A stretch of DNA of 64,000 nt from Neisseriaceae bacterium (GTDB lineage Bacteria; Pseudomonadota; Gammaproteobacteria; Burkholderiales; Neisseriaceae), in contig JAFTFY010000008.1 of NCBI GenBank assembly GCA_017458185.1, forward strand, positions 12,315-76,314. Reading direction: 5' to 3'. The notes beneath the pieces were generated by a model that had not been told where the DNA came from, did not search any database, and saw only the letters and a program-made list of their open reading frames with translations. The number at the start of each line of letters is the position of its first letter. Position 1 is the first letter of the stretch. Shown piece by piece: positions 25,457-33,552 of the stretch. The position numbers were made by a program, and so were the translations under genes.

Positions 25457-25550
25457 TTTTTGGCTTCGTCTAAATTGCGGTTTGATTGCTTTGCAATCCA
25501 TTGATTTACTTTGTAAATCAATGATTTTAGTCTGACGACTAAAATAAACC

Positions 25551-26513
25551 TTATTTTAAGGCTGCCTGAAAATGTTTTATTTGCCAGCAGCGGTGGATTT
25601 TTTTATTGCGAAAGTCAATCGGTACGGATTGTGCGGATATGTCTTTAATATTGTATTTTTCGCTGATTTCATTGGCTAATTTGAAGGTGCGTAAATTATT
25701 AGAAAAATACAAAACGCCATTTGGTGATAATAATTTCATTGCTTGTTTAATCAATAAAACATGGTCGCGTTGTATATCGAATGAGTTGGTCATTTTTTTG
25801 CTATTGGAAAATGACGGCGGGTCAATGACGATTAAGTCAAATTGTTTTTGCGTTTGTTGTATATATTCTAATACATTTTCTCGAATAATAATATGTTGTT
25901 TTGTATTGATATTATTGAGTTTGAAATTTCGTTTTGCCCACTCGCAATAGGCATTAGATAAATCCACTGTTTCACTATAAATTGCTCCGCCTTTTGCGGC
26001 ATAAACGGTGAAACTGCCTGTATAAGCAAATAAATTTAAAAAGCGTTTGCCCATCGCTTCGTTTTTAATTCGCAAACGGGTGTTTCTGTGGTCTAAAAAT
26101 AAACCTGTGTCTAAATATTTATCTAAATTCACCCAAAAGGGTATGCCGTTTTCGCTAACAATCAAATCTTCGCCTAAAATGCCTGTTTTTTGATATTGCT
26201 CATCGCCTTTTTGTTTTTGACGCACTTTATAATGCACTTTGTCTTGCGTGCAGTCGGTTGCCATACACACCGACAGCACGGCGTTTTGCCGCTCTTCGTC
26301 TGCTATGTTTTTATGCGGCGTGTGGTATTCGTAAATCACGCGGCTATCGCCATAAATATCCACTGCAAAAGGAAATTCGGGAATGTCTTTATCGTAAATG
26401 CGATAGGCATCAATATTTTGTTTTCGCATTAACTTACTGAAATGCTTGAAGTTTTTATTTAGGCGGTTGGTAAAAGCAATAAATCGTTCGTTCATTTTTG
26501 TTTGTTCGCTCAA
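25551..26513 (-). CDS. class I SAM-dependent (rRNA) methyltransferase, RlmK/RlmI C-terminal-like
   Basis: FLNLFAYTGSFTVYAAKGGA is the SAM motif and DLIVIDPPSFSNSKK is motif IV (DPPxF). Confidence 0.8.
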   Translation of the reverse strand: MSEQTKMNERFIAFTNRLNKNFKHFSKLMRKQNIDAYRIYDKDIPEFPFAVDIYGDSRVIYEYHTPHKNIADEERQNAVLSVCMATDCTQDKVHYKVRQKQKGDEQYQKTGILGEDLIVSENGIPFWVNLDKYLDTGLFLDHRNTRLRIKNEAMGKRFLNLFAYTGSFTVYAAKGGAIYSETVDLSNAYCEWAKRNFKLNNINTKQHIIIRENVLEYIQQTQKQFDLIVIDPPSFSNSKKMTNSFDIQRDHVLLIKQAMKLLSPNGVLYFSNNLRTFKLANEISEKYNIKDISAQSVPIDFRNKKIHRCWQIKHFQAALK

Positions 26514-26587
26514 ATTAGTGATAGTATTTAATTTTTTTCAGGCTGCCTGAAAGTACTATTTTACTCTGTCGCAGTAAGGAAAATGCA

Positions 26588-27223
26588 ATGAATTTACACA
26601 ATATTCGCCAAGATTATGCCAAACAAGAATTGTCGCTTGATGAGTGTGCGGCGTCGCCTATGACGCAGTTTCAGTTGTGGTTAAAACAAGCAATGGACGC
26701 ACAGGTGAGTGAGCCGACAGCGATGAGCGTGGCAACTGTGGATAGCACAGGCAAGCCGTCTTGTCGCATTGTTTTATTGAAAGAAGTGAATGACGAAGGC
26801 TTTGTTTTTTTTACAAATTATAAAAGCCACAAGGGTAGGGCGATGGAACATAATCCTGCGGTTGCCTTGACCTTTTTTTGGGCGGAATTAGAGCGGCAGG
26901 TGCGAGTGCAAGGCGTTGCCTATAAGTTAGACGAAAAAAAATCTGATGAATATTTTGCGTCTCGTCCTTATACCAGCCGTGTTGGGGCGTGGGCAAGTCA
27001 TCAAAGCGAGCCTTTGGCAAGCAAAGAAGCCCTGTTAGCCAAAGCGGCATTGATTGCCGCCAAACACCCCTTAAAAGTGCCGCGTCCGCCGCACTGGGGC
27101 GGTTACCTTGTTCGTCCTGAAATTATCGAATTTTGGCAAGGTCGCCCCAGCCGCTTGCACGATAGAATTTGCTATTCCCTGCATGAAAATGGAGCGTGGA
27201 AAAAAGTGCGATTGTCGCCGTAG
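26588..27223 (+). CDS. pdxH: pyridoxamine 5'-phosphate oxidase
   Basis: RIVLLKEV.., FFTNY.S.KG and the C-terminal [14 protein letters not shown] are PdxH signatures. Confidence 0.95.
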
Positions 27224-27307
27224 GGGAATGTTTTCAGGGGGCTTGAAAAATTTTTGCAATATCAAATAAATATACTATACATTATATTTAATTATATGTA
27301 TAGGTTA

Positions 27308-27337
27308 TTGACAAAGTTCTATGCAATATTTTACAAT
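27308..27337 (+). promoter_or_regulatory. candidate sigma70 promoter of the AT-rich two-gene cassette
   Basis: TTGACA-N18-TACAAT, about 200 nt upstream of the first cassette ORF. Confidence 0.4.
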
Positions 27338-27537
27338 GCCTTGTTTCAAAAAGTTCTTTATGTAACAAGTCAAGTAATCGTTTGCTTGTAAGTAAAGTTT
27401 TCGGTGCTTATAGTGTTGAGTTTCACTGTAAGACTTTTGTCGTGAATTTAAATGACATTATTACAATTAAAACTGTAAAAACTAACAGGTGTTAATTGTA
27501 GTTTCTTTGAATGCTTTTTAAGGTGAGGATGATTAAA

Positions 27538-27786
27538 ATGAGTGAAGTAAGCGATATGCTTAAAGAGTACGCTTCTGTTATTACAGGAATGTCGTACGAA
27601 GAGTTAGTTAATTTTTCCGAACTTGATAGCGATAGGAATGTGTTAGGTAAGGAGTTATCGTATTCAAATTTAGAAGATAAGAGAATATTAGCACGAGGTA
27701 ATCCATTGTTCACCCATAACGACAGAATGATAGGTCGTAAAGAAATAAATAAAAGATGGGAAAGTATTTGGAAAGAAGAGAATTAA
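27538..27786 (+). CDS. hypothetical small acidic protein (cassette gene 1)
   Basis: An ATG follows an AGGTGAGGA RBS at good spacing. 82 aa with no recognisable motif. Its TAA directly abuts the next ATG at 27787. Confidence 0.5.
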   Translation: MSEVSDMLKEYASVITGMSYEELVNFSELDSDRNVLGKELSYSNLEDKRILARGNPLFTHNDRMIGRKEINKRWESIWKEEN

Positions 27787-27836
27787 ATGGAAAAAACTAA
27801 ACTTCGTAGAATTTATCTTCGTAAACTTGTTCTCTT

Positions 27837-27844
27837 GGGGGGGG
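27837..27844 (+). repeat. homopolymeric G8 tract (candidate slipped-strand phase-variation site)
   Basis: cttggggggggatg is the only G/C run of 8 or more that I saw in the window. It lies between the coupled ATG at 27787 and the long ORF in a different frame. Confidence 0.85.
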
Positions 27845-28498
27845 ATGTATCGATTAAGGATTGTGCCCTTTATAACTTATGCTGAAGTTATTACTTCGGA
27901 ATATCCTTGGCAAGTTCAGATTGAAGTACGCAATGCTTGTACGCATTTATCTAGAAGTTGGTACTTTTTAAACAGTAGTTCAAAAGATGGTGAGAAGTTT
28001 TGTTTAGAAAATTTAAGACAGGCTGAAACACATTGTCAGAGAGCAATATTGGATTTATGTAAATTTAATTGTATTGCCGTTTATGATGAATATAAAGAGT
28101 ACAAAAAAGACATTCTTGATTATGTCAATCGGTGGTTGTGGCATCACAAGATTTCAGGAGGTGAATATGCGGCAGTTAGAGATACTATTTCGAAACTTCG
28201 AACAACTGCTGTTAGTTTGTATAGAGAGGCTAAAGCGAGAGAAGAATTGGAAGGTAGTAGAACTATACATTTGTATTGTGAAGCAACCAAAGCACATTGG
28301 GCGTTGTGGTCTTATTTGCAACAACATAAGGCACTGTTTGAAGATATAAAAGCAAATATTACAGACGGCGATGATGAAATAAAGCAGTATATTATGGGAG
28401 AAAAAAGGTATGGGAAATTAAAGTTTTGGGCGAGTATAGTGTTGAGTGCTGTGTTTGGTGCAGTGTTAGGATATTTGCTTAATAAATTTAATTTTTAG
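27845..28498 (+). CDS. hypothetical alpha-helical protein with an RNxxxH motif and a C-terminal TM anchor (cassette gene 2; coordinates are from the first in-frame ATG after the G-tract)
   Basis: The long ORF is AT-rich. It contains VRNACTH (Rx4H) and a C-terminal FWASIVLSAVFGAVLGYLL. With G7 instead of G8 the ORF would fuse to the ATG at 27787. Confidence 0.55.
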   Translation: MYRLRIVPFITYAEVITSEYPWQVQIEVRNACTHLSRSWYFLNSSSKDGEKFCLENLRQAETHCQRAILDLCKFNCIAVYDEYKEYKKDILDYVNRWLWHHKISGGEYAAVRDTISKLRTTAVSLYREAKAREELEGSRTIHLYCEATKAHWALWSYLQQHKALFEDIKANITDGDDEIKQYIMGEKRYGKLKFWASIVLSAVFGAVLGYLLNKFNF

Positions 28499-28644
28499 AG
28501 TGTTAAACAATACAATTATAAATGAAGCAAAAAATAAATGAAGCAAAAAGCCCCTTATCAAGGGGGCTTAAAATTTGCATATTTAAAAGATGATTATGTT
28601 TTTACTGATACAATCCATTGTCGAAAAACAATAGACAAAAAAAT

Positions 28645-28735
28645 TGGCGGAAGCGGTGAGATTCGAACTCACGGTGGGCTACTAACCCACGACGGTTTTC
28701 AAGACCGCTGCATTAAACCGCTCTGCCACGCTTCC
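28645..28735 (-). tRNA. tRNA-Ser (anticodon UGA)
   Basis: The reverse complement reads GGAAGCGTGGCAGAGCGGTTTAATGCAGCGGTCTTGAAAACCGTCGTGGGTTAGTAGCCCACCGTGAGTTCGAATCTCACCGCTTCCGCCA. The anticodon loop is CTTGAAA, the variable arm is long and the T-arm is GTTCGAATC. Confidence 0.92.
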
Positions 28736-28793
28736 GAAAAGAAATGCGATTTTAACCCTTATTAACCATTTTGCCAAGAGTTTTATTAAAAAA

Positions 28794-30122
28794 ATGTTTG
28801 TTTGTTCTCAACAAGATTTATTTCAGTTTGCCGAAGATGCGTTGCGTTACGCCAAACAAGGCGGTGCAGACGGTGCGGCGGTTGATGTGTATGAATCCAC
28901 AGGTTTGGAAGTGGCTGTGCGTATGCAGGAAACCGAAAAAGTGGCGTATCGCCGCGATACGGGCGTGGAAGTAGCGGTTTTTGTGGGCAAGAAAAAAGGC
29001 TATGCTTCAACCGCCGATTTGTCGCCACAGGCTTTACAGCAAACGGTTGCCGCCGCTTTGAATATCGCTCGATTTACCGAAGACGATGAATGTTCAGGGC
29101 TGCCTGAACCTGAATTTTTGGCAAGCGATTTGTTCGATTTGGATTTGTATCACCCCTATACGCAAACGCCTGATCAGGCGATTGAATGGGCAAAACAGTG
29201 CGAAAATGCGGCTTTGTCGCAGGATACGCGTATTACGAACAGCGAAGGCTCAGAAGTGTCAAGCGATGTGTCGCAGTCGGTGTTTGCGAACTCTTTGGGC
29301 TTTGCGGCGTATGATAGACGCACGCGTTATGCTATGTCGTGCGTGGCTGTGGCAAGCGATAACGGCGATATGCAAAGAGACTATTGGTCGGACGCAACTC
29401 GTTCTGTTGATGATTTAGCGTCTGCTGATGAAATCGGTAAAACCGCTGCCCAGCGGGTTTTGGCTCGCTTAAATTCAGGCAGCGTTAAAACGGGGGTGTA
29501 TCCTGTTTTGTTTGACCGTATGGTTTCAGGCAGCCTGATTGCCCATTTGGCAGGGGCTTTGTCAGGCGGTGCGTTGTATCGCAAAAGCAGTTTCTTATGC
29601 GATTCTTTGGGTAAAAAAATTCTGCCAGATTGTGTTCAATTACGAGAAGAGCCGCACTTAAAAAAGGCGTTTTCGGTTGCCGTGTGCGATGACGAAGGTG
29701 TGGCAACCAAGCCACGCACGGTGATTGATAAAGGTGTTGTTCAAGGTTATTTTTTAAGCACATATTCGGCTCGCAAATTAGGCTTAAACACCACAGGCAA
29801 TGCAGGCGGTGTGCATCATTTGTGCTTAAAACCCACAGTGGCAACCCAAAAAGACTTGTTAAAACAAATGGGTACGGGCTTAATTGTTACCGAGTTAATG
29901 GGGCAAGGGGTGAATTTGCTGACAGGCGATTATTCGCGTGGTGCGTCTGGCTTTTGGGTGGAAAACGGCGTGATTGCGTATCCTGTGCAAGAAATCACCA
30001 TTGCAGGCAGATTGCAAGATATGTTCGCCCAAGTATTAGGCATTGCCGATGACGCACGCAAACACGCCGCACACAGTGTTGGGTCGATTTTGGTAGAGCA
30101 GATGACGGTAGCAGGGCAGTGA
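28794..30122 (+). CDS. pmbA: metalloprotease PmbA (TldE)
   Basis: 442 aa, colinear with the PmbA/TldD family (..GDYSRGASGFWVENG..). Confidence 0.92.
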   Translation: MFVCSQQDLFQFAEDALRYAKQGGADGAAVDVYESTGLEVAVRMQETEKVAYRRDTGVEVAVFVGKKKGYASTADLSPQALQQTVAAALNIARFTEDDECSGLPEPEFLASDLFDLDLYHPYTQTPDQAIEWAKQCENAALSQDTRITNSEGSEVSSDVSQSVFANSLGFAAYDRRTRYAMSCVAVASDNGDMQRDYWSDATRSVDDLASADEIGKTAAQRVLARLNSGSVKTGVYPVLFDRMVSGSLIAHLAGALSGGALYRKSSFLCDSLGKKILPDCVQLREEPHLKKAFSVAVCDDEGVATKPRTVIDKGVVQGYFLSTYSARKLGLNTTGNAGGVHHLCLKPTVATQKDLLKQMGTGLIVTELMGQGVNLLTGDYSRGASGFWVENGVIAYPVQEITIAGRLQDMFAQVLGIADDARKHAAHSVGSILVEQMTVAGQ

Positions 30123-30123
30123 T

Positions 30124-30379
30124 AGTGAGTAGTGAGCAGTGAGTAGTGAGCAGTAAGCAGTGAGTAGTGAGCAGTTATTAAGTCAAGCCTTGCGGCTTGA
30201 CGGATATTTTAGAACGGACGACCACATAGGGTCGTCCCTACGCAATACTTTTCAGGCAGCCTGAAAGAATAAATCGAAGCATTATTAAAATTTAACCTGT
30301 TTTGCCTGACAAGGCAAAACATAAAGCCTAATTGCTCATTTCTAATTGCTCATTGCTAATTATTTAACTGCTCATTGAC
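30124..30379. repeat. heptamer-capped palindromic element, copy 3
   Basis: The left cap is (AGTGAGY)x7.5 at 30124-30175 and the inverted cap lies at 30330-30379. A central DUS is at 30251 and a REP-like hairpin is inserted at 30216-30242. Confidence 0.8.
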
Positions 30380-30576
30380 CTAAAATATTTAATAATCCAA
30401 AAAATCTTTATTCTTCAAAAGTTATTCATTTAATTTATTCATCTTTTTTGTGTCTATTTATGGTATTTTTTTACAGAAAAACCAATTATATACATAAAAA
30501 AGATGAAATTTATCAATATTTCAGGTAAAATTCGCTGTTTATAATTATTTCAAATGATTTCTCGGACAAGATTTTT

Positions 30577-33552
30577 ATGTTAGCGTGGTTGTTTTTATTG
30601 ATTTGTTTAGTGGCGGCTTCGGTGGTGGTTTATTTGTACCAAGAAAAAAGCCGTAAAGAGTGGGAGTGGGAGTTAATTTATCTTACTCGCCACAGCAAAA
30701 ATGGTGCGATGCCGTCCATTAAACCAATGAAAAAAATCTCGCTTGCCCCTGTGTTTGGCGGCATTAAACGACTAGGCAAGCCCACTCGCCGCATTAACGA
30801 AAACGACTTTTTTGCTCCTGTGCATGACGATTTATCCGATTTGCCGATTTTTTCGTCTGCACCCAAACCCAAAGATACGCAGTTACATGCGGCTACGCGT
30901 TTAAAAGAAACCTTTGATGAAGAACGCAAAATTGCCGTTTCTCAACCGAAAACAACCCCCAAGCCACAAGTTGAAAAAACGCAAACCATTATTTCGGTGA
31001 AACCTTTGCAAGATTTAGATGACGATGATGATGACGATGAAATTGCCGAAACCATTTCGGCAAATGATTTGCACCGTCATCGCACTTCGTTAGTGGAAAT
31101 TGAAATCGAAGAAGATTTAGACGAGCCGCAAGAAGAAGTGCAACCTGTTGTTATTTCAAATAAAAAAGAAGAAAAGCCCGCAATGGATTTAAGCAATCCT
31201 GACCCTGAATCGGAAGTGATTTCAGCGGCGGATATTTCGCGGCAAATTCCTGTTAAACCTGCCAAGCCGATTGTTGATGATTATCCTGAAAAAGAAATTA
31301 TTTCTGCCGAAGAAATCATCAGACGCATTGGGGCAACGGTGGCAAACAGTCCGAAAACGCAACAATCCACACGCACCATTGCCGCAGGCAGCCTGAAAAA
31401 ACCGAATAAAACCAACGCTGTGCCTGAAAAACGCACGATTGACGGTGATGAACTTCGCCGCAATTTATCGCACAAAACACATGCGGACGATAATAAAGAA
31501 ACCAAAATCATTACGGCAGAAAATTTAGGCACGCCGCAAAGCGAATTGCCACACCATTTAAGATATGTTGATTTTCCTAAATCTTCGCCTAAAAATCGTA
31601 CCGAAACAGTGAAACCTGTGGTGCGTAGCGTTATTCCGCCCGAAGCACGCTGGAATGATACGGCACAACCTGAAAATAAAGTGCCTGAAAAGCCTATTTC
31701 CACTATTTTTACGCCGTTTGCCAACCCTGCTAAACGCAGTAATCCGCTAAAAAAAACAACAGAGATTTTGCCTGAAAAACCGCAACAATCGTTCGATTAT
31801 GAAGACAATGCCCTGTGGTCGCTGCCTGCTATGGACGATATTTGGAATAATGAATTAGCGGCTGATGAAACGGCTGATTTTGTTCAAGAAAATGCGTTCA
31901 GGCAGCCTGAAACACCCGTAACTTCTTTCAGGCAGCCTGAAAATATTTCTACAATGCCCACAACGCCTTTGCACCAGCCTGAAACACCGCAACACAAGCC
32001 CGAAGTGGTGGCGTATGACAAACTGCACGCCCCCAGTGTTACGCAACGGCTGTTCGCGTCTGTGCGTAAATTTCAACTGCCTAATTTATCGCTGTTAATT
32101 CCGCCTGTATTGGATTTTTCTGCCAATGTCAGCGAAGACGAAATTTTGCAATCGTCCATTACCATTGAAGAAAAACTTGCCGAATTTCGTGTGAAAGTGC
32201 GTGTGATAGACGCATTTGCAGGTCCTGTGATTACCCGTTACGAAATCGAACCCGATACAGGGGTGCGGGGCAGTCAAGTGGTGAATTTAGAAAAAGACTT
32301 GGCAAGGGCGTTGGGGCATGCCAGCATTCGCGTGGTGGAAACCATACCAGGCAAGACTTGTATGGGTTTGGAATTACCCAACCCACAACGCAAAATGATT
32401 CGCCTATCGGAAATTTTCGGCACAGAAACCTTTGCGTCTGCCAAATCCAAACTCACCATGGCGTTGGGGCAGGACATTACAGGCAAACCGATTGTAACGG
32501 ACTTGGCGAAAGCACCGCACCTGCTTGTGGCAGGTACTACGGGTTCAGGCAAATCAGTCGGCGTGAATGCGATGATTTTGTCTATGCTGTTCAAAGCCAA
32601 GCCAGACGAAGTGCGTATGATTATGATAGACCCCAAAATGTTGGAGTTATCGATTTACGAAGGCATACCGCACTTGCTCGCCCCTGTGATTACCGATATG
32701 AAACTTGCCCCCAATGCCTTGAATTGGTGCGTGAATGAAATGGAAAAACGCTATCGGCTGATGAGCCACTTGGGCGTACGCAATATGGCAGGTTACAACC
32801 AAAAAATTGCCGAAGCCGAGAAACTCAATAAACGCTTGGCAAATCCATTTAGCCTAACGCCGTCTGACCCTGAACCGTTGGAAAAATTCCCGTTTATCGT
32901 GGTGGTGGTCGATGAATTTGCCGATTTAATGATGGTGGGCGATAAGAAAAAAGTCGAAGAGTGCATTGTACGACTGGCACAAAAAGCCCGTGCCGCAGGC
33001 ATACACTTGATTTTAGCCACACAACGCCCATCGGTTGATGTGATTACAGGCTTAATTAAAGCCAATATTCCCACACGCATTGCCTTTCAGGTTGCTTCCA
33101 CAACCGACAGCCGCACGGTTTTAGACCAAAAAGGGGCAGAAAACTTATTAGGACAAGGCGATATGTTGTTTTTACCGCCAGGCTCGCCCTATCCACAACG
33201 CATACACGGGGCTTTTGTGGCAGACGAAGAAGTACACCGCATTGTGGAATACCTAAAACAATTTGGCGAGCCGCAATATGTTGATGACATTCTCACCGCA
33301 GGCGTGGCTGGCGGCGACTTATTCAGTAACGAAGCAGGCGGATACAATGACGGCGAAACCGATGAGTTGTATGACGCCTCCGTCAAATTTGTCATCGACA
33401 CAGGCAAAACTTCCATTTCCGCCCTACAACGCCACTTACGCATAGGCTACAACCGAGCAGCCAACATTATTGACGCATTAGAAGCCGCTAGCGTCATTTC
33501 CCCTGCCGACAGCAGCGGCAAACGCAAAGTGTTGGTTGGGCGAAGCGAATAA
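30577..33552 (+). CDS. ftsK: DNA translocase FtsK
   Basis: The C-terminal motor carries [10 protein letters not shown] (Walker A) and [10 protein letters not shown] (Walker B), followed by a gamma wHTH ([19 protein letters not shown]). A long low-complexity linker is present. I see only one clear N-terminal TM helix. Confidence 0.93.

Follow-up and report, generated by a model that had tools for sequence, protein, structure and literature searches.

A G8 tract in gene 2 of an uncharacterised prophage-type two-gene operon from a Neisseriaceae bacterium: a candidate reversible OFF state

Organisation of the locus

A stretch of 64,000 nucleotides (nt) from a Neisseriaceae bacterium (contig JAFTFY010000008.1 of assembly GCA_017458185.1), hereafter called the window, was analysed with respect to a two-gene cassette in which a run of eight guanines (G8) stands between a start codon and the body of the second gene. 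The cassette is an AT-rich insert of 1.3 kb, a single operon composed of promoter, leader, gene 1 and gene 2, and is located in the terminator region of pdxH and tRNA-Ser. Its 5' neighbour is pdxH (26588-27223, plus strand) and its 3' neighbour is tRNA-Ser(tga) (28645-28735, minus strand), beyond which pmbA starts at 28794. An initial annotation, made from the sequence alone, had read this cassette as a possible horizontally acquired and phase-variable module. Its coordinates for the promoter, the leader inverted repeat and the acidic 82-residue product of gene 1 were reproduced here, as were the stop-start junction, the tract, the 32-codon stop, the long open reading frame (ORF), the frame arithmetic for G7 and G10, and the helical product of gene 2 ending in one transmembrane (TM) helix.

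Gene 1 (27538-27786, plus strand) encodes a soluble partner of 82 residues (pI 4.97) having an invariant RGNP motif, and is preceded by a strong Shine-Dalgarno sequence, AAGGTGAGGA, placed 8 nt upstream. The TAA stop codon of gene 1 directly abuts ATG 27787 (junction 27784-27789), the probable ancestral start of gene 2. The 5' end of gene 2 comprises 19 codons from this ATG (27787-27843, plus strand), encoding the peptide MEKTKLRRIYLRKLVLLGG, and runs into the G8 homopolymer (27837-27844, plus strand), which occupies codons 18-20 of the ancestral ORF and shifts its frame. In the G8 state the frame opened at ATG 27787 is closed after 32 codons (27787-27885, plus strand; stop at 27883-27885) and specifies a by-product peptide. 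The body of gene 2 continues in another frame as 217 codons from an internal ATG (27845-28498, plus strand) with all the family-invariant residues present; the NCBI annotation begins the same gene at GTG 27863 as a product of 211 residues (MBQ9682155.1). The G run abuts ATG 27845 at a spacing of 0-4 nt, and an AAGGA element is found 2 nt from GTG 27863. A tract of G7 or G10 would fuse ATG 27787 to the long ORF, giving MEKTKLRRIYLRKLVLLGG-MYRLRIV... of 236 or 237 residues respectively. The G8 tract is the sole run of G or C of at least 7 nt in the 64 kb; the expectation for independent, identically distributed bases is 0.24 per window and 0.004 in the cassette.

Two conserved motifs and a membrane segment were located in the gene 2 body, all on the plus strand. 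Motif 1, IEVRNACTH (27920-27946; family form NEIRxxxxH), has invariant E and R and an H conserved in at least 90% of members. Motif 2, HCQRAILDLCK (28031-28063; family form HxKRAxLDCYK), has invariant H, R, D and K. The product is all-helical and has one C-terminal TM helix, FWASIVLSAVFGAVLGYLL (28424-28480), a predicted tail anchor with a mean Kyte-Doolittle hydropathy of 2.04 over 19 residues.

Start of gene 2 and effect of the G8 tract

The position at which gene 2 begins was analysed in a survey of 86 loci of the family, taken from assemblies, viral contigs and metagenomes. In the relatives the nearest start codon in the gene 2 frame lies mostly at -23 to +21 nt from the stop of gene 1, with a few at +42 to +60 nt. 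Gene 2 begins at or before position 10 of the family hidden Markov model (HMM) in 80 of the 86 loci, the exceptions being cut by a contig end or degenerate, while the 217-residue form of the window begins only at position 19, inside the conserved helix 1. The distance from the gene 1 stop to the NExR motif is 44.3 codons in the window versus 29-69 in relatives. Since the relatives open gene 2 at the stop of gene 1, the 58-nt 'gap' of the window corresponds to sequence that is coding in the family.

The peptide encoded by this gap was then aligned with P0003, the gene 2 product of a second allele found at the same site on contig L012. The 19-residue peptide aligned with the N-terminus of P0003 without gaps from Met1 at a BLOSUM62 score of +13, versus -12.8 +/- 9.4 for shuffled peptides (p = 0.005), and the literal upstream frame of the long ORF scored -17. 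Tyr21 and Pro27 are common to P0003 and the G7-fused product. The fused protein of 236 residues was modelled by AlphaFold2 with an alignment of 55 sequences at a mean predicted local distance difference test (pLDDT) score of 92.2 and a predicted TM-score (pTM) of 0.79. Residues 2-36 form one helix in this model, and the 19-codon extension makes up the first half of helix 1 with pLDDT values of 93-98. The proposal in the initial annotation that G8 uncouples gene 2 from its start is thus borne out by the starts of the relatives near the gene 1 stop and by the in-register alignment with P0003; ATG 27787 is very probably the ancestral start of gene 2, and G8 breaks its frame.

Protein family and fixed operon

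Neither protein had been assigned to a family in the initial annotation, and this did not hold, as a homologous though unnamed family exists. An exhaustive HMMER search revealed 45 remote homologs of gene 2 at 27-45% identity (phmmer E 1.6e-11 to 1e-3), and the profile built from them collected more than 128 protein clusters, all unnamed and without Pfam domains. Most of them were obtained from gut metagenomes; a source is named for only a few, and these belong to Firmicutes (Thomasclavelia cocleata and a metagenome-assembled genome, MAG, of Lachnospiraceae). The gene 2 family comprises tail-anchored, all-helical proteins of about 205-240 residues, every full-length member ending in the single C-terminal TM helix; the gene 1 family comprises soluble proteins of about 80 residues. 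A gene of 73-93 codons was present immediately upstream and on the same strand in every context first examined, and the small proteins so encoded are homologous to gene 1 of the window and share the invariant RGNP motif. Of the 83 surveyed loci that allowed an assessment, 82 have gene 1 next to gene 2. The horizontal acquisition proposed for the module is supported by this fixed pairing of the homologs, mostly in Firmicutes and prophages, and as judged by homology the module belongs to a conserved two-gene family without a name, whose other members come mainly from gut Firmicutes and their prophages.

Gene 2 was found split in 5 of 86 loci (about 6%) and gene 1 in none of the 75 loci where it is complete, a difference that is not significant, given the 2.6-fold smaller length of gene 1. 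In four contigs (L164, L171, L172 and L174) gene 2 is split across two frames, L172 having a C6 run; coverage is below 3x in two of the four contigs, and these splits could be assembly errors or real inactivations.

The only named resemblance of the window proteins in Pfam, NCBIfam, PADLOC and PHROGs was a weak match of gene 2 to phrog_9168, a phage family of unknown function (E 0.0019), which is matched by 33 of 43 family members. With this related family the window copy shares the conserved E/R/H and H/R/D/K residues, the TM helix and the coupled operon order. It is nevertheless an outlier, being only 20-27% identical to most members, lying in a beta-proteobacterium rather than a Firmicute and in the chromosome rather than in a prophage, and having a frameshifted gene 2; its gene 1 product is acidic, whereas that of most relatives is basic. 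Its gene 2 is 43% identical to P0003 over the N-terminal part. The gene 1 homologs matched no Pfam family, a word-indexed homology search returned only the window's own proteins, and no homolog of a typical family member was found among cultured phage genomes and plasmids. The literature search gave no description of the gene 1/gene 2 family.

The genomic context of the relatives was also analysed. In a Thomasclavelia prophage the module adjoins a tyrosine integrase and tail genes, and another copy, at an element boundary adjoining host genes, neighbours a large serine recombinase. Six IMG/VR contigs have the module; in one IMG/VR prophage (L097:592-6629) the order is an endolysin, a gene of unknown function, a MazF-like gene, two small membrane proteins, the module and a large serine integrase on the opposite strand, so that the module is in an accessory region near another toxin gene. 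One copy is found alone within a polysaccharide gene cluster. These positions are accessory sites typical of toxin-antitoxin (TA), exclusion and defence genes, and we infer from the context only that the pair may act as a toxic or exclusion-type effector with its partner, in the manner of TA or abortive infection (Abi) systems.

Predicted fold and comparison with known systems

The fused model has helices at residues 2-36, 41-61, 66-120, 125-179, 181-194 and 196-233. A model computed from the single sequence matched only generic helical bundles in the PDB and BFVD, and the family profile found nothing among PDB sequences. The invariant polar residues are on helices 2 and 3 (fused numbering): E46 and H53 on the former and H82 and D89 on the latter, with R48, R85 and K92 beside them. 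Because the members of each pair are seven residues apart, each pair would face one side of its helix. This arrangement of E/R/H and H/R/D/K residues suggests a catalytic or a metal- or ligand-binding site.

A likeness to HEPN ribonucleases had been pointed out in the initial annotation, and only the motif part of it stood. The protein is all-helical and the Rx4H motif (RNACTH here, where R is followed by the polar residue) is conserved, R29 being invariant and H34 present in at least 90% of 43 sequences. The window protein matched no HEPN family of Pfam at E up to 10, no HEPN family was among the 25 families most matched by the 43 members (E up to 0.1), and the PADLOC CARF_HEPN profile matched weakly in 1 of the 43 (E 9e-4). 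None of the 50 listed of 226 Foldseek matches (E up to 10) was a HEPN structure, where the long helices could mask a local match. The HEPN fold is a compact four-helix bundle in which the motif opens the last core helix, whereas here the motif is in helix 2 of an elongated six-helix bundle, and the second invariant motif of gene 2, H-x2-R-x3-D-x2-K, has no HEPN counterpart. Membership of HEPN thus fails by sequence and by fold despite the conserved Rx4H.

The nearest shapes were those of ClyA-type toxins, BAR domains, Vipp1 and designed bundles, with which the model shares an elongated bundle, two helices of 55 residues and a hydrophobic segment. Homology to ClyA, BAR or Vipp1 is not claimed, as TM-scores were at most 0.33 and E values at least 0.2. 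In its organisation the module resembles type II TA and two-gene Abi systems, since a small upstream gene is coupled to a larger downstream gene, the sites are prophage accessory sites, and of the two genes it is gene 2 that occurs in broken form.

A second allele at the same site

P0003 is encoded on a Logan contig of 1.5 kb (L012:1-1501, run SRR27787405) equivalent to window positions 27325-28745. This contig represents the same locus, having the same -10 element, leader, terminator and tRNA-Ser. Identity to the window is 96.7% in the leader (100% over its first 137 nt), 68.7% in gene 1, about 50% in gene 2, 78% in the 3' spacer and 100% in tRNA-Ser. Such divergent genes within conserved flanks indicate that the coding cassette was replaced or is fast-evolving.

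The L012 gene 2 overlaps gene 1 by ATGA and its N-terminus is in frame. It is split further downstream into ORFs of 153 and 125 residues, which match the family HMM in its N-terminal half (55 bits) and its C-terminal half (22 bits) respectively, and one base inserted anywhere in 859-925 of the contig restores a protein of 268 residues scoring 72-82 bits. In the two alleles known from Neisseriaceae, then, gene 1 is whole and gene 2 is disrupted. Split copies make up about 6% of the family, and at that rate two broken alleles out of two suggest selection for silencing rather than neutral decay. In comparison with L012 the window tract was formed by three substitutions to G, in AT-rich DNA.

A search of the metagenome contig collection with an invariant 33-mer of the leader gave no match. 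Among species-representative genomes searched by PdxH, the relatives were 65-68% identical, and none had tRNA-Ser, pmbA or the cassette beside pdxH.

Interpretation of the G8 tract

The reading we favour, held at even confidence, is that G8 represents a slipped-strand and reversible OFF state of the effector gene in a horizontally acquired, uncharacterised operon of prophage type. In the G8 state, ribosomes leaving gene 1 would make the 32-residue peptide, and little or no gene 2 product would be formed, since ATG 27845 lacks a ribosome-binding site at a suitable distance and is covered by the 32-codon ORF. Loss of one G would restore the protein of 236 residues. As a tract of G7 or G8 is prone to slippage, the locus would most likely be an ON/OFF switch, with all the sampled populations in the OFF state.

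Contingency loci of Neisseria and Haemophilus have poly-G tracts in their 5' coding regions, and phase-variable genes are also found in defence systems, as with brxX/pglX of bacteriophage exclusion (BREX)/Pgl. The cassette is like the contingency loci in that a G run in the first 20 codons sets the frame, in a DUS-bearing (DNA uptake sequence) member of the Neisseriaceae, and differs in its cargo, which is a prophage-type module and not a surface-antigen, lipooligosaccharide (LOS) or restriction-modification gene. Of the features that characterise contingency loci, a homopolymer of at least 7 nt beyond chance in the 5' coding region was found, and a change in its length would toggle an otherwise intact ORF; a difference in tract length, at the level of assemblies, and retention of the tract in the orthologous allele were not found. 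BREX-type defence systems may, as noted in one paper, phase-vary through a homopolymeric tract in brxX (PMC6326788).

The length of the tract was compared among independent assemblies. The exact gene 1 sequence was found on 8 contigs and the 217-residue form of gene 2 on 6 contigs; four loci were read at the DNA level besides the window, from two ENA assemblies and two Logan runs. Over 27224-28644 these four do not differ from the window at all (100% identity), while their flanks contain 0-4 single-nucleotide polymorphisms (SNPs). The flank SNPs and one differing upstream gene indicate that at least three genotypes are represented.

Several results weigh against the reversible OFF state. The tract was G8 in all five assemblies read (the window and the four loci), without variation in length, and the exact G7-fused and G10-fused proteins were not found among 15 billion proteins. 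The Logan contigs cross the tract uninterrupted, which indicates no major heterogeneity in those runs. A G or C run of at least 6 nt was present in none of the 86 family loci except for the one C6, and L012 has no G tract, reading TTG GCT GAG at that place, so that the tract is not retained in the sister allele. The frameshift in L012 is another one, and the only homopolymers near it are an A6 and a T4, neither of them long; simple decay of gene 2, or selection against it, would explain this pattern equally well. The 19-residue extension earned no extra score from the family HMM (83.8 versus 83.2 bits; shuffled extensions 84.4), a test which has no power as the family N-terminus is too variable, so the comparison with the closest allele was used in its place. 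With regard to the effector role, the model of pLDDT 92 had no significant Foldseek match in the PDB (best E 0.21, TM-score at most 0.33), and Pfam, NCBIfam, PADLOC and PHROGs gave no homology to toxins, antitoxins or defence proteins. Phase variation at G8, which the initial annotation had put forward, is therefore not supported: the tract comparison gave G8 in the five assemblies, no G7 or G10 product was found, and L012 is without a tract.

The alternative which survives best, somewhat unlikely in our judgement, is that gene 2 is a plain pseudogene. A one-base slip in a pre-existing G7 run after transfer would have become effectively fixed, and the cassette would be a decaying remnant in which only gene 1, if anything, still works. 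The constancy of G8 and the lack of a fused product on record are what this explanation predicts, and L012 is likewise frameshifted, at another place, with an intact gene 1. Broken copies do occur, as shown by the 6% of family copies split in metagenomes, and the leader retains what looks like the remnant of an earlier gene 2 3' end (described below), a trace of past decay or replacement. Against it, the lesion is single; the 217 codons have remained open in AT-rich DNA with the invariant residues all intact. The lesion also lies in the one hypermutable tract of the window, which makes reversion mechanistically easy, the building of the tract took three changes to G, and the excess of broken alleles over the background suggests that silencing is selected.

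A functional product of 217 residues from ATG 27845, or 211 residues from GTG 27863, with the G run incidental or a weak ribosome-binding element and the 58 nt as a spacer, is quite improbable. Two gene callers annotate the gene in this manner, a few relatives do have 42-60 nt between the gene 1 stop and the first start codon, and the truncated form is helical in the single-sequence model with every invariant residue present. The gapped relatives, however, still begin at HMM position 4-10 versus 19 here, and the 58 nt specify, in a different frame, a peptide with homology to the N-terminus of the sister allele. The spacing of both candidate ribosome-binding elements is short (0-4 nt for the G run and ATG, 2 nt for AAGGA and GTG), and the 32-codon ORF overlaps both starts.

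Recoding on G8 would give a low constitutive level of full-length gene 2 product, either by +1 slippage of tRNA-Gly on GGG-GGG-G or by slippage of RNA polymerase, and is considered highly improbable. The shift needed is +1, and perfect re-pairing of the tRNA is possible on such a run; G8 is stable across the assemblies as a programmed site would be, and scarcity of a toxic effector is a plausible purpose. The A site, on the other hand, has no slow or stop codon (GAU comes next), no stimulatory structure was identified, and neither the sister allele nor any relative has the tract, so recoding is no family trait. A sequencing or assembly artefact, by which the true tract would be G7 and gene 2 intact, is hardly credible: errors are common in homopolymers and the data come entirely from metagenomes, yet five assemblies from at least four runs and different assemblers (an NCBI MAG, two ENA and two Logan) agree on G8 despite the flank SNPs.

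If the switch is real, a commensal of the Neisseriaceae would possess an effector module that is phase-variable and stems from a prophage, extending contingency logic beyond surface antigens and restriction-modification. If the tract is a fixed frameshift, the locus is no more than a mobile cassette that has become a pseudogene in the ordinary way. Independently of the switch, the analysis defines a two-gene family of more than 128 clusters with near-invariable pairing and a confident model that has no PDB match; its seven invariant polar residues (the H of motif 1 being conserved in at least 90%) make it a concrete candidate for defence and toxin screens. The allelic replacement within conserved flanks (leader 97%, genes 50-69%) is a pattern typical under diversifying selection. 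A wider proposal, rather unlikely in our view, is that the pair of RGNP protein and tail-anchored effector forms an undescribed, widespread, prophage-borne exclusion or Abi system with a new fold and active site, which was captured as a chromosomal locus in this Neisseriaceae lineage, diversified allelically through recombination and brought under the control of a poly-G slipped-strand switch of new origin. Only a fraction of the cells would then express the defence and bear its cost.

Promoter, leader and flanking repeats

The operon has a promoter of the sigma-70 type, TTGACA-N18-TACAAT (27308-27337, plus strand), which agrees with the consensus at 11 of 12 positions, better than any other site in the region; the count of promoter-like sites in the region is not above that of shuffled sequences. 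Its -10 element is 100% identical in L012. With the transcription start placed by the -10 element, the structured 5' leader would span about 195 nt (27344-27537, plus strand). Its fold has a minimum free energy of -44.9 kcal/mol and is more stable than those of shuffled sequences (z = -2.93). The leader matched no family in Rfam.

The leader contains an apparent relic of a gene 2 3' end (27390-27421, plus strand), which is identical to 28416-28447 at 27 of 32 positions and reads VKFSVLIVLS in register against LKFWASIVLS in the TM-helix part of gene 2, the offset being 1026 = 3 x 342. This repeat scores 39, versus 23.3 +/- 2.6 for shuffled sequences. The 32-nt copy indicates an earlier gene 2 3' end and thereby past turnover of the cassette. 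A terminator-like hairpin with a T-rich run (27407-27432, plus strand), also present in the minimum free energy fold, is a candidate attenuator. The leader hairpin is formed by the inverted repeat TACAATTAA / TTAATTGTA (27462-27470 / 27492-27500, plus strand), and the change found in its 3' arm in L012 preserves the pair as U-G. A segment of 33 nt in the leader (27473-27505) is 76% complementary to the middle of gene 2 (28192-28224); this could be a long-range pairing within the mRNA or chance.

The insert is flanked by an imperfect direct repeat of about 30 nt. The left copy (27231-27262) includes the decayed DUS/pdxH terminator remnant, and the right copy (28555-28582) overlaps the terminator hairpin of tRNA-Ser. 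The local alignment of the two copies scored 31, versus 14.1 +/- 2.7 for shuffled sequences, of which 1 in 1000 reached as high. As the island is bracketed by the repeat with its right copy at the terminator, it appears to have been inserted into the shared terminator with duplication of the target. The statement in the initial annotation that no integrase and no copy of the tRNA 3' end is present was upheld, and the flanking repeat, which derives from the terminator region, is an addition to it that corrects the impression of an insert without repeats. No integrase ORF was found in the ORF list within or beside the 1.3-kb insert. A classical tRNA-integrase island was accordingly rejected, since an integrase is missing and the tRNA 3' end is not repeated directly at the distal boundary.

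Downstream of gene 2, a 16-nt unit, ATAAATGAAGCAAAAA, is perfectly duplicated in tandem (28518-28549, plus strand), and L012 has one copy of it. The G+C-rich hairpin at 28548-28569 serves on the minus strand as the terminator of tRNA-Ser and on the plus strand is the probable end of the cassette transcript.

Base composition, uptake sequences and neighbouring genes

The GC profile and the DUS scan confirmed that the insert is AT-rich and lacks a perfect DUS, with one decayed copy remaining. The GC fraction is 0.30-0.36 over about 27150-28650, versus 0.45-0.51 in pdxH and pmbA. The gene for an S-adenosylmethionine (SAM)-methyltransferase upstream of pdxH (25551-26513, minus strand) has a GC fraction of 0.30-0.37; as this gene is AT-rich too, low GC is no special mark of the cassette. 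The DUS core of this genome is GCTGCCTGAA, often within the near-palindrome TTCAGGCTGCCTGAA, and there are 81 cores per 64 kb. No copy of the core was found from 26542 to 29099 in the scan of the window. At the density of the window such a DUS-free gap of 2.6 kb has a chance of about 0.04, so the absence is weak evidence. The degenerate DUS at 27231-27249 has 3 mismatches to the 15-mer.

The near-palindrome TTCAGGCTGCCTGAA counts both as AG-simDUS (73 copies) and as AG-kingDUS (70 copies), about 1 per 0.8 kb, with examples at 155, 1736, 26540 and 29525 of the window. The GCCGTCTGAA-type DUS is missing from the whole 64-kb window, which indicates that the host is not a pathogenic Neisseria. To the left of window position 25478 one of the assemblies (L001, 1-940) diverges, an isocitrate-dehydrogenase-family gene taking the place of the PALP-family gene, which is structural variation among strains otherwise 99.9% identical. 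On the other side of the locus, a sharp GC trough of 0.24 is present at 30300-30600, between pmbA and an FtsK-like gene.

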